Shown: positions 2,267 through 44,385 of the stretch, in pieces
How the letters are laid out: each line of letters opens with the position of its first letter
Numbering within the stretch: the first letter of the stretch is position 1
From: Cirrosporium novae-zelandiae
Lineage: Eukaryota
Assembly: GCA_026023565.1 (NCBI GenBank)
Contig: JAPETS010000017.1
Span: 124,001-188,000 of the forward strand
Direction: 5' to 3'
DNA length: 64,000 bases
Program-made: the position numbers and the translations under genes
The notes under the pieces: model-generated
Told to the model about the DNA's origin: nothing
What the model saw: only the letters and a program-made list of their open reading frames with translations
The model's database searches: none

Positions 2267-2785
2267 ATGTAACAATGTTATTTCTCGTCATAAGCTTGTG
2301 GAAAGGCGTGGGAAGATTAGGTCCTTGGTTGTTTCAATCAGATATTGTAGGAAAGCGGGAAACTCAAAAGCGTCTTGTCTTTGGTGTGTGATGATAGATG
2401 AAGATAATACTTTGTAGAATCAATGTGATGGTGGTTATAATAAAATAGTGAGGGTCGTCATAGTAAAGTTGGTGGTCCAAACATTGGTCCCCCAAAGCTT
2501 AGCGGGTTAGCTTTCCCGTGGTGCCCATCAAAAGCTTCAAAATTGATGGAGAAATTGGAAAAACTTGATGCCGAAAATCGGAACATCTGGCTCTCATACG
2601 CCAAGTCTCGAAAAGTTTGGAGACTGGAAGGAGGGATCGAAATCAATTCAACATCTATTAATATTTGTATATCTCCCCCATCAAGCTCCTGTGCTTTTCA
2701 TCCCTTCTTTATTCCTCCCCCATTATCATCGTCCTTCTTCCGCCTGTCCGACTCTCCATCTTTTTCCCTCCAGAATAATTTCAAA

Positions 2786-3503
2786 ATGCCTTCATTCTGG
2801 GACACATTAACCGGCCGCAACACCTCCCCATCTTCGCCTCTCCCGACTCAACAAGCACCTACCATCCAACAGCCGTCTCCTTTTGATTCTTCCCGAAACC
2901 AGGATGCTTCTGATCTGCTCGCCTCCGCAATTCCTGATCCCTCACAACTGCACCCTTTAGCTGGCCTTAATCAGGATACACTTGATTACCTCAACCTGGA
3001 AGACTCCGCTCTTTCCACTCTCCCCGGCTCACGTTCTGCTCTTCCGTCGCGCGGCTGGTCCGATGATCTCTGCTATGGTACAGGTGTATTATATCTTGCT
3101 GGTCTGTCTGTGGGAGGCAGCTGGGGTCTAGCGGAAGGTCTAAACCGCTCGCCCCCCGGAGCTCCTCCTAGGCTACGTCTCAACTCTGTACTCAACTCGG
3201 TGACACGAAGAGGGCCATTCATGGGGAACAGCGCGGGTGTGTTAGCACTCGTATATAATATAATCAACTCAGTTCTTGGGAGAGTGAGGGGGAAGCACGA
3301 TGCTGCGAACAGTATCGCGGCGGGCGCATTGAGCGGGATGATGTTTAAGTGTACTAGGGGTTTAAAACCGATGATGATTTCGAGTAGTCTGGTCGCTGGC
3401 GCGGCGGGCGCTTGGGCAGTAAGAAATCTTTGGATTGCCTATTTCGCCTTGGGTATGTAAAATGCTAATATCTCCATAGGTCGCCAGGAGAGCTCTCGCC
3501 TAA
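2786..3503 (+). CDS. TIM23: Mitochondrial inner-membrane translocase subunit Tim23; intron 3419-3479
   Basis: Motifs LHPLAGL, LPSRGWSDDLCYGTG, LNSVTRRGPFMGNSAG, RGKHDAANSIAAGALSG. ATG at 2786; last exon VARRALA*. Confidence 0.95.
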
Positions 3504-4242: not shown

Positions 4243-7200
4243 ATGGAGAACCAAGTAGAGTCACCAGATCTTTCGGCTTCCAACCAATCCAAGGTCAATG
4301 ATGACCTTGATCCTCCAATTCTGATGCCAGAAGAATATTTGAGAAGCATGGGCAAATCATTCAAGTCTACCATATTTCCCCAAAAGAATTCTCAATCAGA
4401 CCCAGGGATGCTGTTTCGGTATGTTCCTCACAGCATTTAGTCATCGAATCGACCAAGCCAGTCCAGACTTGGGCCGAAGGCAATCTGCAATGATTCTTCG
4501 GGCTAGAGATATACATATTCTTGATAGTTCGTTGTGTATACTTGAAATAGAGGTAGATGTTTATTGAACACCGCCAATCATATTGAATGGACAGAATTCT
4601 GAAGGAAATGTCTAGCCTTGATCAATCCTTGATTTCTCGGTGCATTTCTTTTTCACCTTATGTTATATTCTCATCTGCCTCTGGTTCTGGTTTGGTCGGG
4701 CTTGGTTGGTTTGGAAATTTCTATAGGCAAAGAAGACATGTTCTAATCATGCCACAGATCTTTGCGGGCTATGCTTAATAGTTTAATATTTACAGCGGAT
4801 AGCCCCTCCATTGCCATGTCCCATAGGATTGCTGCTTGTCATACTCTCTCCGGCTTCTTAGAGGAGTGCTTAAAGTCACCTTTTCTATATATCCAACAAC
4901 TTGGATTTTCCCAAGATACTGGAGAGACGATATTTTCCATCTATTTAGATCGATTTAATGACTGTCCGGCCAAGCCAATGAGACAACTCCTTTCCACACT
5001 TGCGGCGAGCATCTCAGGCAACCCGGACACGAAAGTTGCGAGGTATCTGCATGGAAAGGTCCTAGAAACCCTACTTCTCCTAATTTTCAACAAGGATTCT
5101 AGCTCTAAAATTAGGCCTGCTTGCCAAGGATTGGCTCTTTTCCTTCGCAAGAGGGTCCTTACTGTTGAAGATGTTATATATGCCATCCGTGACTTACAGC
5201 TAGGTGTCGATGTTCCTACCCTGAAAGGTCCAGATCAGATCGAACTCTGGGAAACCTATGTGGAAACATTTACATTGGGAGCTCTTAGACGAATGGCCGA
5301 AACCGATATGGGTCCTGCTGTAGGTGGCATGCTTTCCACGTTCTTCGGGTTATTGATGCAGAATGGATCTCCCCAGCAAGATTTCTTCCACTCTGCTACC
5401 AGTTTTCCACTTTGGGTAGTTCCAGTAAAGAGAGTAGTCAAGGAGCAGCCCAATGTCATGGACAATTTACAACATCATCTATTCCCTGACTTATTGAAAC
5501 TCAATCGTCCTAGCTTTATTCAATTTATGGGGTCACTGCCTCTAAAGAACTTGATCCTTGGAAAATCATTAGGTGGAGATGATACCGAGGTATCATTGCT
5601 ATTTTGCTTATTACAAGTCGGAAGAGAGCTTGGTTTAATTGGAGCACCTGGTACGCGGCATTATTATTCATATGGGGTGGAAACAATTTCAAACTGACAT
5701 GTCTTAGGAAATGTGTCTAGTAAAATCGAATCAGACAGATTGGCCATTCATGATGGCGTTTTTGGTCACTATCTAGGACACGCTACTTCTAGAGTTCGGA
5801 TTGCAGCACTTTCAATATTGATTAGCACCACCTCTATAACTAAACCTTTTTCTGAAGCTGCCCTTTCGTCGCTGCAACAATATCTGCCTCAATTGCATGC
5901 CGATATTGATGCAAAGTTTAGGAACGATGTACTTAGTTTGTCACGTAAGTTAGTTTTTAGATTACGTGCGAGTACCTCCTATCTAGTCAGACTGGAACAG
6001 CAGCAGGTGAAAGCTGCTGAACCGGTAGATATGACCTTGCGGCAAATTCGTTTCCAAATTAGCTTCTGTCAATGGTACGTGAACTTTTTGACTTTCGAGC
6101 TTCGTTCCACTGCCTCCTACCAACGACATATTGTGGCTCTTAAAGCCCTGATGATTCTGCTACGATCAGATGTAGAAAAGACCCCGAATCAAAACCAGAT
6201 AACGGCTATCAATGGTCGCCTTATGTGGCTACCGGGTATTCAGATCTTTCGACCAGTTCTCGTCCGAATGTTATTTGACTTAATTGTCGATCCGTTTGAT
6301 GATGTCCGGCTCACGGCGACAATGCTTCTGGACTTGGCACCAGAGGAATCGCTATTAGGTCGATCAGATGCCTCTGAACAAAATTCAAAAGACGTGCAAG
6401 ATGTTCGACTCCTCACGATACTTCAACAAGCAGAGGGAATGATGCGACGTACTGGCAGAGCTGACCACTCAGATGGTGTGGCTCGGCTTTACCAGATCTT
6501 ATTCACCAAATGCGAGTTTGGGAAAAGTAATAAATGGTGGCAATCTCGGAGTGCTATAGTTGATCATATTCTTGTAGAATTGGAAAGGGGGGTTCAAGTT
6601 GCTAAGATGAATCTTCGCCTGGCTGTCTCCTCTGCCCCTATCCATGGATATTTGATCGCATTAAGGTGGGTAGAAAATGACTTCTTCAGAATATTTAATT
6701 CTAACCCCTTCTAGGTATATTGTCAGTCAGCCCGACTTTTATTCTCTTATAGAGGAATCGGAGAATACCTATACCTCCTGGCGATCTATACAGGATCGAA
6801 TCATGAAATTCTCTCGAGACATTTGGGAATCTTCATGGGGTATCCTGTGTATAGAATCTCCAGAGGGGCATGAAGAGGATGAAGATGATGATCTTGATAT
6901 AGGAGTCAAGGATACGCTCTCGTTCTCCTGGAGAGCCGTGAAGGAATCAAGGTTTGCAAGCTCTTTCTTGGTTTCATTGATCCGGTCTGATGAAGATAGT
7001 TCCCTATTGCAAGCAATAGTTTCAAACAGCAGCTATGGACCAAATAGTGAGAATGATGGCCTTGGGTTTGAGGATTTCAAATCGGTCGGTGGTCTTTGTT
7101 TCACTCAGTTGGCTGAGCTCCGACATCGAGGAGCCTTTTCCACTGTATCTTCTACTTTTGCTTCTTGCTGCCAGCGATGTATCAAATCGGACGATAAATC

Positions 7201-28069: not shown

Positions 28070-29574
28070 ATGCTGTCGAGGGCTTCCTTCCGCTTAGCTA
28101 GGGCTATGCCCAGAGCATCTCCCATATCATCCTTCAGAGTTGCTCCTGTAGCTGTTCGCCGGGTTACCACAGATGCCGCTTCGTCGCATACCGAACGGGA
28201 AAATGTTCCTTCAGTAAGTGAACAGTTAAACTCCCAATTGCTGCCAGAATTTAGGGATAAACCTCACATTGCTAACCATATTTTTCCTCCAGGAAGATGA
28301 CAAGCCTTTTGAAATCAAATTATCCGACGAGTCCTTTGAGACCTACGAGCTGGATCCGCCTTCATATGTCCTGAACACTACCAAGAGAGATCTTAAGCAA
28401 ATGTACACTGACATGGTGACAATCCGGTGCGTTTCTAACCTTTACATCTCTCCCGAATAATTCCAGAGCTCAATTGTAGCTAACCAACAATTTTTCCGTA
28501 GCCGGATGGAAATGGCCGCGGACCGCCTGTACAAGGAAAAGAAAATCCGAGGTTTCTGCCACTTGTCTACTGGACAAGAAGCTGTAGCCGTTGGTATTGA
28601 GCATGCTATTTCCAAGAAAGATCATCTCATCACCGCCTACCGTTGCCACGGCTTCGCGCTTATGCGTGGTAGCACCGTAAAGCGGATTATTTCTGAACTG
28701 CTTGGTCGCCGCGGTGGAATTTCCTACGGCAAAGGTGGTTCCATGCATATGTATGCTCCTGGATTCTTTGGCGGAAACGGTATCGTCGGCGCGCAAGTTC
28801 CTTTGGGCGCTGGGTTGGCCTTTGCTCACCAATATGAGGGTCTTGATACTGCGACAGTTGCACTCTACGGTGATGGTGCTTCGAACCAGGGTCAGGTTTT
28901 TGAGGCCTTTAACATGGCTAAGCTATGGAAACTTCCCGTTCTTTTTGGCTGTGAAAGTAAGCTCCTTCTGTCAATTCAATCCCTGGACCAGTTGAATTGT
29001 CTGCTAACATTCCTCCGTAGATAACAAGTACGGTATGGGTACCAGCGCGTCCCGTTCCTCGGCCATGACCGACTACTACAAGCGTGGTCAATATATTCCC
29101 GGTATCAAAGTCAACGGCATGGACGTCCTCGCCGTCAAGCAAGCCGTTGCCTTTGGTAAAGAATACACCGCCGCTGGCAACGGACCCCTCGTCATTGAAT
29201 ACGTCACTTATCGCTACGGAGGTCACTCCATGTCAGACCCCGGAACAACTTACCGGACCCGCGAAGAGATCCAGCGCATGCGTAGCACCAACGACCCCAT
29301 CGCCGGACTCAAGCAAAAACTCCTCGACTGGGGTGTTACATCCGAGGAAGAGCTAAAGACGCTAGACAAGGAGGCCAGAAAGGCGGTAGATGAGGAGGTC
29401 AAGGAGGCTGAGGCCATGGAACCCCCAACCGCTGATGAGGAAACCCTATTTGAAGATGTTTACGTCAAGGGCAGTGAACCTCCTTACCTAAGAGGAAGAA
29501 CCGTAGACGAAACATTTTATTATTCGAGATTGGAAGGCCGTGAGAAGAAGGAATTTGTTACCCAGACTTTCTAG
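28070..29574 (+). CDS. PDA1: Pyruvate dehydrogenase E1 alpha subunit, mitochondrial; three introns
   Basis: Arg-rich targeting peptide, [16 protein letters not shown]-binding [15 protein letters not shown]…[17 protein letters not shown]. Confidence 0.98.
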
Positions 29575-30751
29575 ATGCGTATACGTCTCGTCGCTGTTGA
29601 TTGGTTGGTGGGTGGGTGACCTGACCTGGCATTGATTGTATCCGAACTTGCTAGTAAGATTCATCGCGAGGATACTCAGCTTAGTCAGTCCGGAGACAGG
29701 GGGTAGGGGGATGAAATATCTTAATCGGATACTATTCTCAACTGTATAGTAGCTACTGCAATATGATGTGATGCAATGCGGTGCCCTCTGGAGACTCGAG
29801 ATGAAATGGAATGAAATAGTAGGGGGGAGGAGGAAGGTAAGGGGAGCAAGAGGAGAGGAAGTAATAGCATTTTTAAACCCAACCAAATATACAAAATCCT
29901 ACTTCCTGTTTTTTTTTTTGCCATTGCATGTGTATGATACTTTCTTCCTTTTCTTTTGATCTCGGTGAGAGATGCTCGTAACGTAAACTACGAACCACCC
30001 TCAAGCCTAACCAAAAAAAACCCCCATTAGGGGGGGAAATAAAGAAAAAGGAAGGAATATTTCATCAGCCAAAATCTTTCTACGTACGTCCCTGTTTTAT
30101 TTCTCCTCCCTACTAGAACTATAAATTAGAAGATGATATTTCCCATTTCCAACATATACTCATTGATGCTAATTAATTAATAACAACGACAATAAAACAA
30201 ATCAATAAAGAACCCCTCCTCTCTTCTTTCTTTTTTTTCTCTTAAGATGAAAACACAACGAACAAAATTCCATAATTTGTTTTTTTTTTGTAAAATACTT
30301 GTTTTGTATACTATATATATATATATTACACAGCATATACATACATACATATCTATCTACCAAATATTAAAATCTAACTCAAAAAATTTGTTTGCTTGCT
30401 TACTTACTAAAAAAAAGGGGGAGAGGAGAAGGAAAGATAAGGACTTGGATATTCTTTTTTTCTTTTTTTTTCTTCTTCTTTTTCTTTCTTGTTAATGTAT
30501 AATTAATGAAAAAGGGATTGAATTTGAATCAAGTTGGATAAATGAATGAATAAAGAAAAATAAAGAAAGTATTTTATATGTTTCTTCGAGCCTGAGCCCA
30601 AGTCAACCCACTCCCACCTCCTTTTGTTATGCAGTAAAGGAACCAAAAGGGGCCAACTACAAAAGCGAAGTCATAGATATCCTAAACTAAAACCAAACCA
30701 ACCCAAGTAGCAAATCAATGCCTTAAAAAAACCCCCTCCCCCTCCCCACAT

Positions 30752-31851
30752 TCACACAAACTCCACCTCCCCCCCAACAGCATTCTCTCTCGCCCAATTC
30801 CACACACCATCCATATCGCGACACGATTTCGTAACGGGCAGCTGGGGGAGAGGCTTTTTAGCAACGGGGTCGGATTGCCAGGAGATGGGGGTTATGTCGG
30901 CGTTGCAGAGGAGGGATTGACGGAGCCAGTCTAGGCAGTGGTCTTTTTTTTGTGTTAGTAGTAAGAGGAGGAGAGAGAGGTATTTGCTACCAAAAAAAAA
31001 AAAAAAAAAAACATACCAATATGTTGAGCATCCTTCCCCCCAAAATTCCTCGTTGTCCCGTCACCAAAAAAGTAATCGGTGAACTCGCTTCGATACCGCG
31101 GCACCTCGGGGACATACAAAGCCTTTCTGATAAGATCGACGCAGTGGATCTGGTGGAACACCTCGAGCTGGATGAGGTATTGATCCGGGTGGTCGGGGAC
31201 GGTGAGGGTTTTGCTTTGGAGCTTGGAGGCTTGGGTGAAGGAGATTTGGCTGTGCATGCTTTCTGTGATGGGGGGAGGGGTTTGTTGGTTTGATTTATTG
31301 TGGGAGATTAAAAGGGGGGAGGGGGTAGAAGATAGAGTGGAGAGATCAGGAAAAGAAAAAGGGGATTATGATTATGGCTATGGACTAACCGTTATAAAGC
31401 TCGTTCCATGCGGCGTCAGTTTCGATATCGGGAAGGCCATCAACCCCTTTCGCCATATAGGCTGTGCGGACATGGATCGAATCCTCTTGCACTTTGGTAT
31501 GGTACTCGATGATATCTTGAACCGGCGCTGAAGTAGCCATCCATTAATTTTTTGTCAGAAGGAAGGGGGGGCTCCTAAGTCTCAATCCCACGAAAAGCCT
31601 AAAGGTGAGTAGCACTTACAATATATTTGTGTATTCACGTTCGTGCAATTTCGTAGTTTATGGAGAGCAATGGTTGCCAGCATGGCCAGTATGGAGATGG
31701 ATGAAATTAAGGAGAGGATGGAGATGGCATGTTTGTATAAGAAGGCGCGGAAACCGCGGTTTGCGGGGTGGTGGTGGGTTTGCCATGCCACATCCGCGTC
31801 GCCTTCTTTCAGGAGATGATATGTTTCCACGTCTTGAAGATTTTCTGACAT
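30752..31851 (-). CDS. DUF3328 / UstYa-family oxidase (fungal RiPP tailoring enzyme), membrane-anchored; exons 31851-31620, 31527-31390, 31262-31017, 30942-30752
   Basis: Spliced product has an N-terminal TM helix, IYSPVQDIIEY, TDAAWNELY, LEVFHQIHCVDLIRK, HIDHCLDWLRQSLLCNADITP and CRDMDGVWNWARE. These are the family hallmarks, including two HXXHC motifs. All three introns are GT-AG and phase-consistent. Confidence 0.93.
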
Positions 31852-33735
31852 ATTGGAAAGCGAATGAAGATGGGATCTGAAAAAAAAGGGAGTTTTCAAA
31901 AGGAGTTTCAATAGAAAATGGGAACAGAAAAAGTTGGGGATTCAAAATTCTCAAAGCTGGGGGATATCTATTCATCAGAATTTCCCCGCAACTACGGACA
32001 ACAAGTTCGACGGAATCACAACTTGCTCTAGATCGTTTGGCTTCGTTTGCTGACGTGGTTTCCCCGAGCAAGTGGCGGCATGAGGTAGGATTGGAAATAC
32101 CACTTCGTGTTGATTCAGTTTAGTGACCTGTCCGCATCTTTTATCCATTATCACACAGATCGAGATCAGCATAATATGCCAACTTCCCATTTTGGTTGAT
32201 ATATCCCGTTGAAGGTGGCGACATTGCGGACACGGGTGAAATACGAGCATCATTGGGTGTTTCTGGCACACACCAGATGCACATCACAGAAAGCAGAGTC
32301 ATTAAGACACGACGACAATGGCTGAGGAGAGCATCGGAACCGAATAGTCATACAAGAATGGGTTATGCTACATGAACACGGTAAACAGAAAGCTGTAGGC
32401 TAGAATTAGGGTTTCTGGTACCCTATGGTCCAATTAGTTAAGTCTGAAAGGTGCATGAAAGGACACTCGAATATCCTCGTGTTGCTATACTGTTATTAGG
32501 GCTTGTTAAAGCCATAGACATGATCGCCACGCAAACGAAAGAAATAAGCCTCGAGAAGCCGAGTTTGAGCTAATGCATCAAGGTTGGAATGTGGGGAATA
32601 ATATTGGAAGATCTTGACCGTCAGCAAATAGCATAGTGTGGGGTTCGTTGGTAGAGCTATGAAGCCATATCAGTAATAACTGCATCTGCTAAAGGGGGAC
32701 ATTATTATTTGGTATTAGTACATTTGACTTGAGTTCCTCGTGGACATACTGACAAACAGCAAAGAGACACACTCGTCTTGGTATGGTTTTCTTTCACTTT
32801 TAAATCACAAGTATTGATTTGAATAGATGATTGGGTGCAATATGAATCACGAAATGTACACATCGTGTTGCTGTAAACAATAGTATACTTGGAAACTTGC
32901 TTGCGGAAACAGCTATATAAAAGTCACAGGTTCGAGAATGTACCTAATCGATTAGAAATCTTGAAAATATTACACTATCTCCTAAGTCTAAGCTTATTTT
33001 ACAAAATTCTTGAGCTTAGCCTTATCTTACGTAAGACTTTTTGCAAAATGTGGCAAAACGTGATGTTTAGGTGGTCAGTGAGAAGATGGAGCTACTGCAG
33101 AACGCCGGATGTGATGGGATGAGAAGGGATGAGAGATATAGAGAATGATGTGATTGTCACAGAAAAGATCGACACTCTGAGAGGTGGGAGGATAGAGAAG
33201 AGAGGTACTAAAGGTTCTGTTCGAGTTAAAGACTCATCTCACATAAGCTCCTAATTGAAATATCACCTACTCTTAATACATTTCAACTATTCCTTTGTTT
33301 CAAACCCAAAGCTTGTGCATATGGATATACGTTATTTCAAGAAAATGGGCTTGAAATTCAAGCTCCTCCTGACAACCCTCTAAGGCGGCAAGGTCCTGGT
33401 AGGACGGGGTCAACATCACTTTGTCCACTAGTTATTTAGATCGAATGAACACAAGTCCACGGGATATTAAGATGTGGCCTGCAATTATGCCTCCACACGC
33501 TTCCAGCTTAGGTGTCATAGAGCATCGAGGGTGAAAGACGTTTTGATGATGCGTCTTCCCAGTGACATGAGCGGCGGACAGTATGGATTTTCGTGGTGTA
33601 TTGTGGCTGCCTCTAACGCCCGAGCTTTCATATTTGTGTGATAATTGGTGCACATGCAGAGTTTCAATGCCCCTTCTCAAAGACTGTTGGTATGTGAAGA
33701 AGAGATGGACGTTGTGCTATGAGGAAGGCAAATTC

Positions 33736-33742
33736 TATAAGT
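33736..33742 (+). promoter_or_regulatory. Putative TATA element of the repeat-precursor gene
   Basis: TATAAGT about 115 bp upstream of ATG 33851; supported by position only. Confidence 0.4.
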
Positions 33743-33850
33743 AGGGGAGTGTCTGCCTCGATATCTGCAAAATAGGCATATAATCCTTCCAAGGACTTTT
33801 GAAGAACCAAGTTCTATAACTTATCTTGTCAGCCTAATTTCACAATCACT

Positions 33851-34742
33851 ATGAAGTCAACAGTCTTCGTTGTCCTTGCCTCTGCCCTTATCCAAGGCAT
33901 AGTCCTTGCAGCTCCCACTCCGTAAGTGGCCTATACATTACCATGAGTTCAGCTCTGACAAGTTTGAAATAGTTCACCATGGGAAACCAATGTTGAGAAG
34001 TAAGATATACCCAGTGCTTCCTAATAGCCAAGACATTAACATAAATATAGCGAGAAGCGGTCCCCAGAGGCAGAAGCGGTAGCAGAAGCAGAGCCGTAAG
34101 TAGTATTACATGTTGTTCGTAGTTAAGGCTAAGATTTCTGGAAGTGTTCCATGGGATACTACTCTTGACAAAAAGTGGGACACTACCCTTGACAAGAAGT
34201 GGGACACAACCCTCGACAAGAAATGGGACACAACTCTTGACAAGAAATGGGACACTACCCTTGACAAGAAGTGGGATACGACCCTTGACAAGCGATCACC
34301 ATGGGACACTGCAATCGATAAACGTGCTCCATGGGAAACTAATGTGGACAAGCGTTGGGAGACTAGTGTTGACAAGCGTAGCCCATGGGAAACAAATATC
34401 GACAAACGTTGGGAGACCGATCTTGATAGGCGTGTCCCATGGGATACTAGCCTCCACCGACGTGCTCCATGGGAGACTGATCTTGGTAAGCGTGAACCAT
34501 GGGAAACCGACCTCAGCAAGCGCTGGGAAACCAATGTCGATAAACGTGCCCCGTGGGAGACTAATGTCGATAAACGCTGGGAGACGAGTGTGGACAAACG
34601 TGCTCCATGGGAAACCGATATTGATAAGCGTTGGGAAACAAGTGTGGACAAGCGGGCTCCATGGGAAACCACCATTGATGAAAAGCGCTGGGTTACCTCT
34701 CTCGACAAGAAATCTCCATGGGAAACCGAACTTGAAGGGTAA
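33851..34742 (+). CDS. Secreted Kex2-processed repeat protein (KEP), candidate RiPP precursor with 23 W-[DE]-T-x-[LIV]-[DE]-type cores; exons 33851-33921, 33973-33999, 34051-34095, 34145-34742 (246 aa)
   Basis: Spliced sequence: MKSTVFVVLASALIQGIVLA-APTPSP-WETNVENE-KR-SPEAEAVAEAEPVP-WDTTLD-KK… . It has a signal peptide, three phase-2 GTAAG introns, and 22 more cores separated by KR/KK/RR. Confidence 0.92.
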
Positions 34743-35465
34743 AGTAAGATCCATCCTTGAAGGCAAAAAAGTAATACTGCAGTACTAAATGATAATCCAG
34801 AACCAAGACGAAGAGATGGCCGCAGCAGCCCGAGTTGCTTGAAAAATAAACTGACCATAAGCCAATGTTGGCTGTGAAGAGGCTTTTGAGAATGTTCAAA
34901 TTCAATTGATTTGTAGTTGATGTCTGGGTCTTATGGAATAGCGATTGTCAAAGTTGAATTACAGAGATGGGTGCTAATGCGTGTGTGAAATGTTTGTATC
35001 TGTTACTGTCCTGATTCCACCAGGCAGTGTTGCTATATAGTTTAGAAGAAAATACAGCCACTGTCTTTACCTACGTTCTCTGTTTTCCGCATAATATTCC
35101 TAATAAATTGATATGGAGTAGCAATATTAGTTTGGGAAGCATCATAAAAGAGAAGAATGCTTACTATGGCTTTAAAATAAGAATGCAAATCCATCACAGG
35201 ATCATAAGTGTCAAAGCTGACCAATAGCTAGGTACCCAGGGAGTTAACGCTGAACCACTAAGCTCACATTAAAATAAGAAACCAACTTCGAATAAGAAGA
35301 ATCATGTCTTCAATATCCAGATCAAGTCAATTACTATTTAGAAAATTAGAATTATCACGCTGTCAAGATATTATTTTCAAGTCATAAAAATACATGGGAG
35401 ATCGTTGACGGTTGCTGATCCTGACGCCTCAATCCACCAATCCATTTCGTTACACAGAGCGTTTC

Positions 35466-37134
35466 TTATACCTTGGCCCTTTTACTATCCACAGAGGCTC
35501 CGTCGTCTTCACCATCCTCATCCTCATCTATAATCTTTCTTTTACCTTTCCTCTCCACTCTTTCTACTGGCTCGTCTTTCTTATCCTCACGTGCTTCATC
35601 ATTGCTATCACCTGACTTCTTCTGCCATATACTAACCAATCTTCCGTAGTCCTCCTCTACACTTGTAACAGTCTCCTCTAGTTTCTCAACTCTATCAGGT
35701 TTTTCCAACTGCTTCAGGACATCCTTGTGTTTACGCCATAATCGCTGCTTCACTAGCAATCTCCACCAATAATATCTCCTATCGTTCTCATCTTTTGCTC
35801 GATATTTTTGCGTGAGGGCTTTGATCGGAGAACGATGGGCAGGCGGGATTGTTGTAAGGAGGTATAGTTCAATTAGGCGGGCTAGTTGACGCTGTGATAA
35901 TTTTGTAGCTGCAAGCAGTGGATAAAGGATGTGGGAGGATGGAGATAGAAGAGATGACGGTGAAATACGATGAGCTGGTTTAGTGGGGGTAGTAAGAGTT
36001 ATTTTTGGTAGAAGTGCAGATGATACAAGATTGGTATAATCACAGTAATCACGAAGATCATCAAAAGCCTCGTTAGGGTCCTCAACAGTAAAATCTTCAA
36101 TTGTGGGGTCTAAGAGGACGAATTTGTAGATAGTATTATAGAGGTGAATGCCATGGGAAGCATGCTGGTGCGCAGGAATGATAAGAAATTGGGATATGCG
36201 AAAGCGGGAGGGAAGCTTCGTGGGCGTCGGAGGAGAAGGATCTGGAATATGAAGATCAAGTTTTGCTGACGGTTTTATGAGACATGATTTCTTCCTGGGT
36301 TCTGGTTTTGGGAGCGTCCAGAAGCGGTAGGTGGTGGAATAGCCGACGAAAGAATAAGGTGAGACATTCGTATTAGGTTTGGTTGGTTGAACCTCATAAC
36401 TGGCGTTGAAGGTTAGTAAATATATTTAGGAAATTCCCTTGAAAGAAACTGAGGACATACATAAAAAACACCCTCCATCGTTCTAAAGTCCATTCTTGGT
36501 CATCCAGGTTAATGGATGTCCCTCCTTCGATGAAAAAGGAGATGAGAATCTGAATCCGTTCAACAAGTTCCTGTACCGAAGGATCGGTGAGAAGACCACT
36601 CCAGATTTCGAAATTGCGACCTTTACTTGAATATCTTTGAACAAGTTCTCCAGGGGGCTTAAATGGTATGGATGCTTGTTTCGTTTGGACGAGTTCGTTG
36701 AACTTGGTAGGCTTATCGAATGCGTCTGTAAAGATATGATTAATTTATATCAGAATGGATGTTTGTTTGAACCTACATTTGGGCAACCATTCACTCATAA
36801 TCTCCTTAACATCGGTAGCTTTGGTATCACCAACAGTCTGAAACTTTTTTTTATATGTAATATCGACATTGGGCAACAGGTCATCAGCAGAATACCGAAG
36901 GGCTATATTTAGACCCTGATATCCAAATATTATTTCTTCATCTCCAAAAATCGGGTAGGTGAATCGTGGATGAAATGATGAAAGTGTCTTCAGATCGTCT
37001 TCTGGATTCTCTGAAGGCTGCAGGAGGCTTATGGTAACGGCCTCATTGGCATCAATTGACCCTGTCAGATTGTTAGAATATCCTACGATGATATTTGGGG
37101 ATGTTGTAGACATACATTCGTCATTATCAGCCAT
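35466..37134 (-). CDS. HAT1: Histone acetyltransferase type B catalytic subunit Hat1; multi-exon
   Basis: Spliced N-terminus MADNDEWSIDANEA, FHPRFTYPIFGDEEIIFGYQGL, FFIEGGTSI, RFRISQFLIIPAHQHASHG, TIEDFTVEDPNEAFDDLRD, VKQRLWRKHKD. Confidence 0.93.
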
Positions 37135-37861
37135 GGCTAAAGAATTAAAGATGAGAAATTATTTGCGATGGATGATGGCAAGACGCCGATGGTGTGTTTG
37201 ATAGCTCTGCCTATAGGAGAATTCTCCAGTATTGCTTGCCCAAGATACCTAGGTACCTATCGATTAATAACGAGTCGGATATATCAGAACGTGCATCAAA
37301 GTTTGGCTCCTCTAGTGCGTCTGCGGATTTGAGCGTGGGAGCAGGTGCTTTGACAATGCAAGCTCGGTGTTGCACGCGTTCGCGTTTGAGGTTTCGCGAA
37401 GCTCTTTAGAGAAGCGAGGGAGCTCATAAAGTGTTAGATAATCGTGAGTCGTGACGGTGCAGCGGACTTAATTCTTTTTGAGGAGTCTTGAATAATTGAT
37501 ATAGTAGAATGGAATAACCAAAATATTCTGGTATGATTCGGGATATTTGGGATAGTTGGCTTCGTATTGAAGCAAGAGAAGTCCGACAATCCCACACCTC
37601 CTTGGTTCCTTGGCCGAAGCTTCACACGCCTCATAAAGAAAGAGCCTCAGCCCTACGAAACTCTCCCAATTATTCTAATTGATCCTAATCTTGACAAAAC
37701 CATCTCCCAATCAAATTATATCCTCACCACAAAAGGAGTTATGTTTCTGTTCTTGATAATGTGCCTTGCTATGATCTGAGTTTCAACGAGAACACGTCAA
37801 AAACAATTGGAGATTTTAACATTCTTTGCCGGCGCCTTTGCGCTGAGTAGAGGCCAACAAG

Positions 37862-39253
37862 ATGGAAGGTCTTTTTGTACTTCTCACCCTCTCGGTGGTT
37901 ATGGCTTTAGCGCAAGTTTCTTCCACTCCTTCTAGCCTTGTCAATGCTAATGCTATTTCCTCTAGATCCTTCCTGGCCGGTTCTTTGCCTTTGTCCTTTT
38001 CGCTGTCCCAATCACGCTTACGCTTAATATCTACAATTGGCATGGGAATATTGGTGGGAACATCATTGATTATAATAATACCTGAAGGAGTGGAAACATT
38101 GTATGATGCCAGCTCATCTACACATACTCATCAACAGAAAGATGTAATTGGGGAATCACTGAAAATAAGGTGGAATTCTGCTCAAGCCCGAGGCCTAGTA
38201 GAGCCAGGTCTTTCAATCATACAACGAGCCCAGGACAGTGGTGATATAAAGCTTTTTGATGAAAAATCGGATCTGAAAAAACCGTCTGAATTGACTATTT
38301 CAACAAGTTCGATTAGCCCCTTAAGTGCATCCGAGTCAACACTCTCAACGGTTCAACATTCGTCTACTACCAAATCAGAAGAAAAGAATGTAGATGAGGA
38401 TGAAGAAAAGGAAGAGGGGGAGGAAAATGATAAACACCACGAAGGTCACTCGCCACATGTATGGGTTGGAATATCGTTGATTTCCGGATTTGTTCTGATG
38501 TATCTCATTGACGAGCTTCCCCGACTTGCGACCTCCTCGACGAAAAAGCCACATCCCTACCATATTTCTTTGAATGATCTCGGGCGAGGGTTTCACCGAG
38601 CAGGTTCGCCGTCAAGGGATGAAGAACGAAACGGGTTTCTCGGCTCAGGCCCCTCACGATCTTCACGATCATTTTCTACAACTATGGGCTTGGTAATCCA
38701 TTCCGCAGCTGACGGAATAGCATTGGGGGCTTCTTCTTCTGGAACCAGCACCGGACTAAGTCTAATCATATTTCTTGCTATTATGGTTCACAAGGCACCC
38801 GCAGCCTTTGGCCTTACCTCGGTGTTATTGAAACAAGGCCTATCAAAACGGGAAACAAGAGCTCATCTTGTAATTTTTAGCATGGCTGCTCCATTGGGAG
38901 CACTGGTTACCTGGGTAATTGCAAATGCACTTGGTGGAGGGCGTATGGGCGTGGAAGGGACAAAGTGGTGGACTGGTGTTCTATTATTGTTTTCAGGGGG
39001 AACCTTCCTGTATGCCTCCTCTTCCACAACAATTTATCAACCAAAAACTAACAAATAACCTAGATACGTGGCAATGCACACAATGCGAGATGAAAGCACA
39101 TCCCCTCATCACCACCACGACAGCAGCCATGCAAACGGTTACGCAGACTCCCGAGAATCAGGGCAGGAACCCCGAAGATCTCTCCAAGATGTTCTAGCAG
39201 CCGTATTCGGCATGATCCTACCTTTATTTTTACAATTTGGCCATGCTCACTAG
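37862..39253 (+). CDS. ATX2: ZIP-family (ZIP9/Atx2-like) Zn/Mn transporter; GC-AG intron 37912-37965 and intron 39010-39063
   Basis: GTSLIIIIPEG, GLVIHSAADGIALGAS, IMVHKAPAAFGL, FSGGTFLYVAMH; multiple TM helices. Confidence 0.9.
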
Positions 39254-42131: not shown

Positions 42132-44385
42132 ATGGATTCCGCACACGCTTCTCAACCTCCCATCTCTCAGCGGAGAGCCTCTACGGCTGATTCAAATAGC
42201 GAGGGCTCTCCGAATTCGAAATCCGTTCCCCAAAACCTTAATATCGACATGTCACGCGTCTCCCGTAGAAAGGCCTCGCCACATCGTGGGCGCCCACGAC
42301 CACTTCCTACACCACGTCGAGTCATTGCCTCACCTTTACCACATCCTCTCTTGACTTCGGCTCCCGCGTCCCCTCCTACGCCAGCCCCCAGTCCAACGCC
42401 CCATCAGCGAGCACCAACTTGGACAACTGCAGGTGAAGAGGAGGATGATTTTTTGAGATACGCCCGAACACACTTCCGCCATTTAGATAGAGAAGAAAGA
42501 GAGCGGTTTCTAGCAGAAGTTTTGAATCTTTGCGACAATCACCAGCTCAGCTTTGTACATCATTTTGTGAGCCCAAGATTGAAAAAGGACCCGTTTCAAG
42601 TTTTTCCGAATGAGCTATGCTTGAGGGTGAGAATTACGCTCCTATATAGCCCCTTATCACCTTTTCTACTGTACTAATATCATTCCTAAAATAGGTACTT
42701 GTATTTGTTGACCATCCAAGGACACTCGCTAGAGCTTCCCAAGTTTCAAGAAGATGGCATGAACTACTAAAGGATGACATGACTTGGAAGATTCAATGCG
42801 AGAAACATGCTTATCGACAAATGTCTGAAGACTCCAGCGACGAAACTAGCCCCCTTTACCCTCCACTACATAATCATCTTAGGCCGTTACCCCTCTTTGC
42901 CAAGCCGAGATCACCAAAACGGAACATCGATTCTCTTCTTCCTGGTCCCTCAAACAGTGCTCCGAATCTCTCTACGACTATTGATGGATCTTCAACTCCT
43001 CCCTTATCGACAAAGTATGCTGTTGACACTGATTTAAGTCCAAGATTGGCTAAAAAGCGAAAACCAAAGACCATGTCCTACAGATCTCATTTTAAGCAAA
43101 GATATTTGGTTGAATTAGCATGGCGAAAAGGAGGGCACTGCAAACTCAAACATATTACTCCCGAGCAGGGCGTAGTGACAAGTCTTCATCTTACTTCTAA
43201 ATATATTGTGGTCGCACTTGATAATGCCAAAATCCACGTTTTCAATACCGATGGGGAACATCAAAAGACATTGCAAGGGCACGTTATGGGTGTGTGGGCA
43301 ATGGTACCTTGGGGAGATACTCTCGTTAGTGGCGGTTGTGATCGAGACGTTCGGGTTTGGGACATGTCAACTGGGTCAGTATATCTGTCCTAATCTTGGA
43401 ACCTTTGCTAATGTATTCCAGTGAGAGCCAGTATGTCCTTCGCGGCCATACCTCAACGGTGCGATGCCTCAAAATGTCCGATGCAAATACTGCCATCTCT
43501 GGATCGAGAGACACGACCTTACGAATATGGGACATCAGGAATGGTACTTGTAAGCATGTTTTAGTTGGCCATCAAGCTAGTGTTAGATGCCTTGCCATCC
43601 ACGGAGATCTTGTCGTATCTGGAAGTTATGATACCACAGCTAGAATATGGAGTATATCGGATGGGCGGTCTATTCGTGTTCTTCAAGGTCATTTCAGTCA
43701 GATCTATGCAATTGCTTTTGATGGTCATAGGATTGCTACCGGGAGTTTGGATACCTCTGTTCGCATATGGGACCCTGAGAGTGGACAATGCCAAGCTATA
43801 TTGCAAGGTCACACTTCATTAGTTGGTCAGCTACAAATGAGAGGCGATACTCTTGTTACCGGGGGATCTGACGGGTCGGTTCGTGTTTGGTCATTGGAGG
43901 ATATGGTTGCTATTCACCGCCTTGCTGCTCATGATAATAGTGTTACCAGTTTGCAGTTCGACGATACAAGAATTGTCAGCGGTGGAAGTGATGGTCGTGT
44001 GAAGATTTGGAGTCTCAGAACGGGTCAATTGATTCGGGAATTGAGCCAACCTGCTGAAGCCGTATGGCGTGTTGCATTTGAGCCAGAGAAAGCTGTCATC
44101 ATGGCAAGCAGGTCAAACAGGACCGTGATGGAGGTAAGTGATTGCCCATCTCCTACAAAGGATCATCGCTAATTGTTGATTTTTAAGGTCTGGTCCTTTG
44201 CACCCCCCCCAGAAGAAAATTTATCGGACTCGGAAGGCTCGGATAGCCCGGTGAGCATGCCGGATCATTTACTACCTGAAGCTTCAAAGCAGCAATCTTT
44301 GCCTATAGATCATGATGGGGATCAACCCATGGTGGATGTGTATGAAGATGTTTCTGCTTCTGCCTCTACTTCCAGAGGCAGATGA
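42132..44385 (+). CDS. F-box and WD40-repeat protein (Cdc4/Sel-10-like SCF substrate receptor); three introns
   Basis: F-box DPFQVFPNELCLRVL…ARASQVSRRWHELL, followed by about seven GH…WD repeats (GHVMGVW, GHTSTVR, GHQASVR, GHFSQIY, GHTSLVG, AHDNSVT). Confidence 0.92.

Follow-up and report, generated by a model that had tools for sequence, protein, structure and literature searches.

Within a 64,000-nucleotide stretch of the genome of Cirrosporium novae-zelandiae, a fungus of the class Xylobotryomycetes (contig JAPETS010000017.1, positions 124,001 to 188,000; here called the window, from whose first letter all coordinates are counted), two genes stand head to head between a PDA1-like and a HAT1-like gene: on the minus strand a gene for an oxidase of the UstYa/DUF3328 family, and on the plus strand a gene for a precursor protein in which short tryptophan-led peptides, the cores, are separated by dibasic sites of the kind cut by Kex2. 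The start codons, at 31851 (-) and 33851 (+), are 2000 bp apart, and the 1999 bp between these divergent starts (31852..33850) are presumed to be a candidate shared promoter region. Six ATG-initiated open reading frames (ORFs) of 41-92 aa from this spacer, compared with Pfam, gave no match at E<=0.01. An earlier note, made from the letters of the DNA, had called both genes, their divergent layout and spacing, the PDA1 and HAT1 flanks and the sequences of the cores, and had read the pair as a fungal system for peptides made on ribosomes and modified after translation (RiPPs). The calls on layout and sequence agree in full with the splice models, spliced translations and Pfam matches reported here; the RiPP reading held in part and is weighed below.

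Oxidase and precursor genes

The oxidase gene has four exons (31851-31620, 31527-31390, 31262-31017 and 30942-30752, minus strand), separated by introns that start with GT and end with AG, and encodes 268 aa. The spliced protein matches the Pfam UstYa profile PF11807 over profile positions 7-220 of 220 (E 3.4e-40, 138.7 bits), the comparison that the earlier note had proposed as a check, and exons 3 and 4 also match it on their own (9.6e-10 and 1.1e-13). An NCBI protein, P0083 (MAG: hypothetical protein M1834_002147 [Cirrosporium novae-zelandiae]), is of equal length and 100% identical over exon 3. The two HxxHC motifs that are thought to form the active site of UstYa proteins (PMC12048977) lie at residues 160-164 (31141..31155, minus strand) and 204-208 (30935..31023, minus strand), and both are invariant in an alignment of the oxidase with the proteins P0084 and P0085. 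The first is also kept in three metagenome homologues, L001, L002 and L003, while the second is split by intron 3, which has the same position in all three. Inside this intron of the window gene there is an A run of ~22 bases on the plus strand (30990-31011).

Near its N terminus, the oxidase has a predicted membrane anchor at residues ~45-63 (31663..31719, minus strand). The highest 19-residue Kyte-Doolittle mean, 2.36, is that of the segment beginning at residue 45, and an AlphaFold2 model places a helix at residues 29-70, with a block value of the predicted local distance difference test (pLDDT) of 92 for residues 41-60. The model as a whole, built from a 14-row alignment, is weak (mean pLDDT 61.6, predicted template modelling score 0.44), and its N-terminal segment is the one confident part. 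The protein is presumably membrane-anchored, with a topology that would put the HxxHC domain in the lumen of the endoplasmic reticulum (ER) or Golgi. No PDB sequence matches the oxidase at E<=1.

The precursor gene likewise has four exons (33851-33921, 33973-33999, 34051-34095 and 34145-34742, plus strand) with introns running from GT to AG, and its 246-aa product contains 23 Trp-led cores and 22 dibasic sites (KR, KK or RR). Its first exon (33851..33921) encodes a putative signal peptide, recognized by inspection only, with Lys2, ~17 mostly hydrophobic residues and then small residues, and it ends in A-P-T-P before a phase-2 intron. Exon 2 contributes one core (Trp codon at 33980), which stands between the leader and a K-R pair. 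This pair opens a pro-region (34051..34151, interrupted by intron 3 at 34096-34144) in which seven X-Pro/X-Ala dipeptides (SP EA EA VA EA EP VP) lead up to the first core of the array. All the other cores, 22 in number, lie in the array itself (34152..34739, plus strand); they follow the pattern W-[D/E]-T-x-[L/V/I]-D, with KR, KK or RR between them, and half come after an X-Pro dipeptide; over the whole precursor, 12 of the 23 cores follow such a dipeptide and 11 come directly after a dibasic pair. Dipeptides of the XA/XP type are those preferred by STE13 (Le Marquer 2019). Examples of the core sequences are WDTTLD, WETNVD and WETSVD, and Tandem Repeats Finder reported periods of 24, 54 and 72 nt over 34151-34669. 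At E<=1, the precursor has no Pfam match to MF_alpha. With lengths of 27 and 45 nt, exons 2 and 3 could be skipped singly or together without a frameshift, and skipping would change only the length of the pro-region before the array.

Position by position, the window cores have Trp at residue 1 (23/23), an acidic residue at 2 (22/23), Thr at 3 (23/23), an aliphatic residue at 5 (23/23) and Asp at 6 (18/23). Together with the ten cores of a related precursor on the L002 contig this makes 33, and every one of them begins with Trp, has a beta-branched residue (Thr or Val) at position 3 and is aliphatic at position 5. Tyr occurs at positions 1-6 in none of the 23 window cores and none of the 10 L002 cores, and Trp is their only aromatic residue. 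Among the window repeats, the proportion of differing synonymous sites (pS) is 0.80, which is near saturation, versus 0.22 for non-synonymous sites (pN), and the six WDTTLD units differ by 48.5 synonymous versus 7.5 non-synonymous changes summed over their 15 pairs. Every frame is open across the array, including a 250-aa antisense ORF at 34106-34858 (-). By inspection, this ORF and the sense frame have their wobble positions in common, which is why the ORF mirrors the array, and the synonymous excess therefore shows selection on the array but not which strand is coding. The gene is placed on the sense strand because the signal-peptide exon splices to the array in phase, because codon usage favors the sense frame (0.236 versus -0.02 bits per codon for the antisense ORF), and because the same architecture is present in L002. 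The antisense ORF was rejected as a real gene on its lower codon-usage score, and its weak match to CED4_WHD (E 4.6e-6, no passing stretch) is taken as a repeat artefact. The precursor gave no self-match in a search of 1.84 billion representative proteins, and its 210-aa sense and 250-aa antisense ORF forms were absent on exact look-up in public protein sets; the gene is thus probably unannotated in these sets, unlike the neighboring oxidase.

Relatives of the gene pair

Word-indexed protein searches with the oxidase recovered only the protein itself, a cluster from Monilinia (43% identity) and one unnamed cluster, so that its close relatives are few. The assembly that carries the Monilinia laxa homologue does not occur in the tables of Umemura 2020. 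A metagenome scan with the oxidase alignment recovered the three contigs L001, L002 and L003. The oxidase genes on these contigs have all three introns at the positions found in the window gene, and over exons 3-4 their products share 63% (L001), 60% (L002) and 54% (L003) identity with the window oxidase, compared with 55-57% for Monilinia. The L001 contig, at 1046 bp, is too short to show neighbors. On L002 (9324 bp), a two-exon gene for a 130-aa precursor is divergent from the oxidase gene, head to head with it and 1674 bp away. This precursor carries ten cores that fit W-[D/E]-[T/V]-A-[V/I]-D, and its leader exon equals that of the window in length, in the A-P-T-P with which it ends and in the phase of the intron that follows; the gene consists of the leader exon and an array exon only, as against the four exons in the window. 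A BLASTP comparison of the L002 precursor with the window array gave an E value of 4e-17, which is inflated by the repeats. Nine of the ten L002 cores come straight after a dibasic site without an X-Pro dipeptide, and the STE13 signature is therefore a variable feature of the family. The other neighbors on L002 are a kinase fragment and ORFs without assignment rather than PDA1 and HAT1, and since the same head-to-head pair is thus found among different neighbors, it behaves as a conserved two-gene module. The spacers of the two loci have 3 10-mers in common versus 3.5 expected from shuffled controls, that is, no excess of shared DNA motifs. About 1.3 kb downstream of the L002 oxidase gene there is also a 237-aa open frame (6019-6732, +) that contains two H-x-x-H-C strings; as a candidate second UstYa gene it was rejected, having no Pfam match and a BLASTP E value of 0.7 against the oxidase.

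On L003, the oxidase homologue (629-1679, -) is accompanied by a tyrosinase gene (2523-3215, +), an ustiloxin-like partnership within the same enzyme clade. The earlier note had named homologues of the precursor without a linked DUF3328 gene as an outcome that would speak against its proposal. Of the two relatives with flanking sequence, the closer one, L002, keeps the linkage, which speaks for the proposal, and the more distant one, L003, shows no precursor within its 6.7 kb.

With the precursor as query, a word-indexed search of 5.8 billion proteins gave no homologue at E<=1e-3 among 6383 candidates. With phmmer, the window array had 81 matches at E<=1e-3 among 1.84 billion representatives, and no Trp-core precursor with dibasic sites was found among them, all 81 having been scanned for the motif and 19 examined in full; these matches are unrelated repeat proteins, such as arthropod-style neuropeptide precursors. 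When metagenomes were scanned for the precursor, 32 sequences matched the pattern but no match was confirmed, and the best score against the ESM Atlas, 0.76, was uninformative. One protein from the phmmer search, P0042 (85 aa), has five tandem units in which P-W-D-T-D-V-D occurs, with no dibasic sites and no obvious leader, and its resemblance to the window cores could be due to chance or could mark a fragment of a related array.

Proposed maturation of the peptides and rival explanations

From these features, and by analogy with the biology of yeast alpha-factor and ustiloxin, a route of maturation can be proposed. The 246-aa precursor would enter the ER by way of its putative signal peptide, which would then be cleaved off. 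Next would come, in the Golgi, cuts by a Kex2-type protease after the 22 dibasic sites; a Kex1-type carboxypeptidase would trim the basic residues, and a Ste13-type dipeptidyl aminopeptidase would strip the X-Pro/X-Ala dipeptides; the A-P-T-P end of the leader would be removed likewise in both loci, exposing the first Trp. As many as 23 acidic hexapeptides would result, each with Trp at its free N terminus. The membrane-anchored UstYa protein, with its two HxxHC motifs facing the lumen, would oxidize these cores within the secretory pathway, and it may close a small macrocycle by joining Trp1, which is invariant, with residue 3, a beta-branched Thr in the window and a Thr or Val in L002. Such a link is suggested by the spacing of an aromatic residue 1 and a beta-branched residue 3, which is that of the YAIG, YVIG and YVIP cores of ustiloxin and phomopsin, cyclized from Tyr1 to Ile3 (PMC7329392; PMC9233826). 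As the modification made at this locus, the Trp1-to-residue 3 macrocycle is put forward on this analogy as a tentative proposal.

On balance, the sequence evidence makes it probable that the locus is a minimal two-gene module of the dikaritin (ustiloxin-like) type, composed of one precursor and one oxidase that act together on these peptides. This reading follows from the conservation of the pair in L002 and from the statistics of DUF3328 genes and precursors in fungal genomes, where 31.8% of 9399 DUF3328 matches have a Kex2-repeat precursor no more than 15 genes away, with the adjacent gene as the most frequent position, versus 0.7% for the comparison family MFS_1 (Umemura 2020, PMC7329392). 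It is supported as well by the intact, full-length UstYa protein with both HxxHC motifs, by the Kex2-repeat features of the precursor and by the position of the two genes as immediate divergent neighbors, and clusters with a single DUF3328 gene have a precedent in asperipin-2a (PMC7329392; PMC12048977). The fuller picture, in which one UstYa oxidase joins Trp1 to the beta-carbon of Thr/Val3 and the pair is a portable module that has moved among poorly sampled ascomycetes with its precursor missed by annotation, may also be correct, although we consider it somewhat doubtful.

A number of points weigh against cooperation of the two genes, and several of them favor the main rival, in which the precursor yields plain linear secreted peptides (hormones, pheromones or interaction signals) through Kex2, Kex1 and Ste13, and the DUF3328 protein is unrelated or has another substrate. 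The linkage comes from one informative relative, L002, and the 6752-bp L003 contig, at 54% oxidase identity, has a divergent tyrosinase gene beside the oxidase and no precursor. DUF3328 proteins also serve pathways other than RiPP synthesis, with hydroxylation, chlorination and transacylation reported for the family (PMC12048977). Six of the dibasic sites are KK, the least frequent Kex2 dibasic pair in the background of Le Marquer 2019. The cores are free of Tyr, the residue used in the cyclizations of ustiloxin, phomopsin, asperipin-2a and epichloecyclin (PMC7329392; PMC9233826; PMC10540207), and Trp is not enriched in DUF3328-linked precursors, being present in 20.5% of these versus 24.5% of unlinked ones, while 78% of all precursors of this type have no DUF3328 gene nearby (Umemura 2020, PMC7329392). 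Most directly, the run of X-Ala/X-Pro dipeptides after K-R in the pro-region and the dipeptides before 12 of the 23 cores form the processing signature of alpha-factor which, according to Le Marquer 2019, is absent from known cyclic-peptide precursors and marks candidates for linear peptide hormones. The earlier note had overlooked this last point, which counts against its RiPP reading. We nevertheless regard the linear alternative as unlikely. Adjacency to the oxidase is kept in L002 despite different flanks, nine of the ten L002 cores lack the X-Pro dipeptide, and no match to MF_alpha was found. In addition, all but three pheromone-type precursors were without DUF3328 neighbors in Umemura 2020, and the acidic, Cys-free cores of 6 aa are unlike the two-Cys pheromones of Leotiomycetes and Sordariomycetes (PMC6339444).

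The two genes could also cooperate without forming a ring, the UstYa protein instead hydroxylating or halogenating Trp, Thr/Val or residue 5, or desaturating one of them to a dehydro residue. Such non-cyclizing oxidation is a lesser possibility, but it is nearly as likely as the Trp1-residue 3 macrocycle because the family also hydroxylates, chlorinates and transacylates. UstYa-family proteins are further said, in the title of a 2021 report by Sogahata, to install dehydroamino acids in phomopsin, and the cores offer no Tyr for a classical ether link. In favor of a ring, the cores always have an aromatic residue 1 and a beta-branched residue 3, counterparts of the Tyr1 and Ile3 that are cross-linked in ustiloxin and phomopsin, and asperipin-2a, the product of a pathway with a single DUF3328 protein, is cyclized (PMC7329392; PMC9233826). 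Finally, the repeat ORF might not be a functional gene at all but a repeat-driven open frame, the shadow of an antisense gene or part of a decaying locus. Over the array every frame stays open for a long stretch, the antisense ORF among them, the gene is missing from the public protein collections searched, and the pattern of synonymous and non-synonymous change does not by itself fix the coding strand, which weighs against the two-gene module as well. This explanation is nonetheless very improbable. The signal-peptide exon and the introns, which run from GT to AG, connect with the array in phase, L002 has the same architecture, codon usage favors the sense frame, and core residues have been kept while synonymous sites became saturated. 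As for the missing annotation, short repeat precursors are easily missed by gene prediction.

Known systems and genomic setting

Under the definition of Montalban-Lopez 2021, quoted in PMC12048977, a DUF3328/UstYa enzyme defines the dikaritin class, and by this definition the locus would work like a dikaritin locus. It has the UstYa domain, two HxxHC motifs, repeated cores at dibasic sites and a clustering of the two genes that is kept in L002, but it lacks a core Tyr for the cross-link and, by Pfam searches of selected long ORFs across the window, the accessory genes of the stricter definition of Ding et al. (tyrosinase, methyltransferase, several DUF3328 genes, transporter or peptidase). Set against alpha-factor-type loci, it has Kex2 sites and STE13 dipeptides before repeated peptides, together with a signal peptide identified by inspection, but neither the pheromone motif of its lineage or MF_alpha nor a vicinity free of DUF3328.

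In economy, the locus is closest to asperipin-2a, with its one oxidase, and to the gigA/gigB pair of epichloecyclin. The asperipin-2a system of Aspergillus flavus (AprA/AprY) also has a Kex2-repeat precursor with a signal peptide (a putative one in the window) and a single UstYa protein, the only one required there to form the ring, and no tyrosinase (PMC7329392; PMC9233826; PMC12048977). Its cores are rich in Tyr and are cross-linked through Tyr side chains, unlike the Tyr-free cores of the window. The asperipin-2a cluster also has a reductase and a transporter, whereas the window pair has only housekeeping genes within ~15 kb. The epichloecyclin cluster of Epichloe festucae (gigA, gigB, gigC and kexB) shares a kexin-cut repeat precursor and one DUF3328 protein, GigB, and deletion of gigB abolishes the cyclic peptides; it differs from the window in its 9-mer cores with a conserved Tyr, methylated Lys, follower peptides and clustered kexin and methyltransferase genes (PMC10540207). 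Ustiloxin and phomopsin (UstA/UstYa/UstYb/UstQ and PhomA/PhomY proteins/PhomQ) resemble the locus in having a secreted, multi-core precursor with dibasic sites, UstYa oxidases with two HxxHC motifs, and cores with an aromatic residue 1 and a beta-branched residue 3 (PMC9233826; PMC7329392). They are unlike it in that their cores contain Tyr and their clusters include a tyrosinase, 2 to 5 DUF3328 genes, a methyltransferase and other enzymes (PMC7329392), where the window has Trp-first cores, one oxidase and no accessory genes, and their precursors are without the STE13-type dipeptides (Le Marquer 2019) that the window precursor has. Yeast-type alpha-factor and other linear peptides cut by Kex2 from repeat precursors have in common with the window precursor a signal peptide (putative in the window), K-R sites, a tandem array of peptides and the X-Ala/X-Pro dipeptides that Ste13 takes off (Le Marquer 2019). 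Peptides of the pheromone type are longer and carry family-specific motifs, and their precursors almost never have DUF3328 neighbors (Umemura 2020), in contrast to acidic 6-mers encoded beside a conserved oxidase gene. A further likeness is to type P-3 (#165) of Umemura 2020, described there on computational grounds only as 'W accompanied by P', a type of Trp repeat precursor of which four of seven members are DUF3328-linked (PMC7329392). This type was compared with the window by its description only, and phmmer detected no close relationship among the 1.84 billion representatives.

The count of precursors with DUF3328 genes alongside them is 1758 in Umemura 2020, and W occurs in 20.5% of these (PMC7329392). 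With thousands of such pairs already predicted computationally, the pairing itself would be unsurprising to a specialist, and what is of interest here is a Trp core free of Tyr, a two-gene form that is both minimal and conserved, the unsampled lineage and the absent annotation. A full-text search found five of the hexapeptide core strings in no paper, and core substrings are absent from the searched supplements of Umemura 2020 and Le Marquer 2019, which is weak evidence since these consist of accession lists or partial tables. No Trp-core dikaritin was found in the accessible literature from 2023 onward or on DUF3328 heterologous expression, a coverage that leaves many subscription journals outside. 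Judging by its sequence, the locus is real and probably represents an uncharacterized, Tyr-free minimal variant of the dikaritin type. Few UstYa-dependent fungal peptides have known structures, and those in the literature covered cyclize via tyrosine; a Trp1-Thr/Val3 link is not among the dikaritin chemistries described there. With one oxidase, one precursor and no helpers, the pair is close to the simplest system for UstYa action on a Tyr-free substrate, and a Trp cross-link, if true, would widen the chemistry of the family and provide a compact two-gene tool for cyclic hexapeptides. If the peptides are linear, the precursor is one more among thousands of catalogued Kex2-repeat precursors. 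The locus also indicates that such precursor genes can escape public annotation of metagenome-assembled fungal genomes.

The flanking genes lie outside the module. On one side is the housekeeping gene for a PDA1-like pyruvate dehydrogenase E1 alpha (28461..29574, +; Pfam E1_dh 1.9e-54 and 1.3e-55), and on the other that for a HAT1-like histone acetyltransferase (35466..37158, -), for which Hat1_N matches on 36745-37158 (6e-32) and the ORF at 35466-36425 is without a Pfam match. Within ~15 kb on each side of the pair, Pfam searches of selected long ORFs found housekeeping genes only, and across the 64-kb window they turned up neither another DUF3328 gene or repeat precursor nor any tyrosinase or methyltransferase gene. 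The remainder of the window is taken up by ordinary housekeeping genes, and the neighborhood of the pair is thus non-biosynthetic. A ZIP transporter gene (37847-39058) lies beyond HAT1, and a gene for an F-box and WD40 protein is found at 42695-44172. Elsewhere, the window encodes Tim17, Trm732/THADA, a DUSP-UCH deubiquitinase, a zinc alcohol dehydrogenase, a mitochondrial carrier and INO80F. The stretch at 30000-30500, which lies between PDA1 and the oxidase gene's 3' end, is very AT-rich and of low complexity, with a GC content of 0.286.

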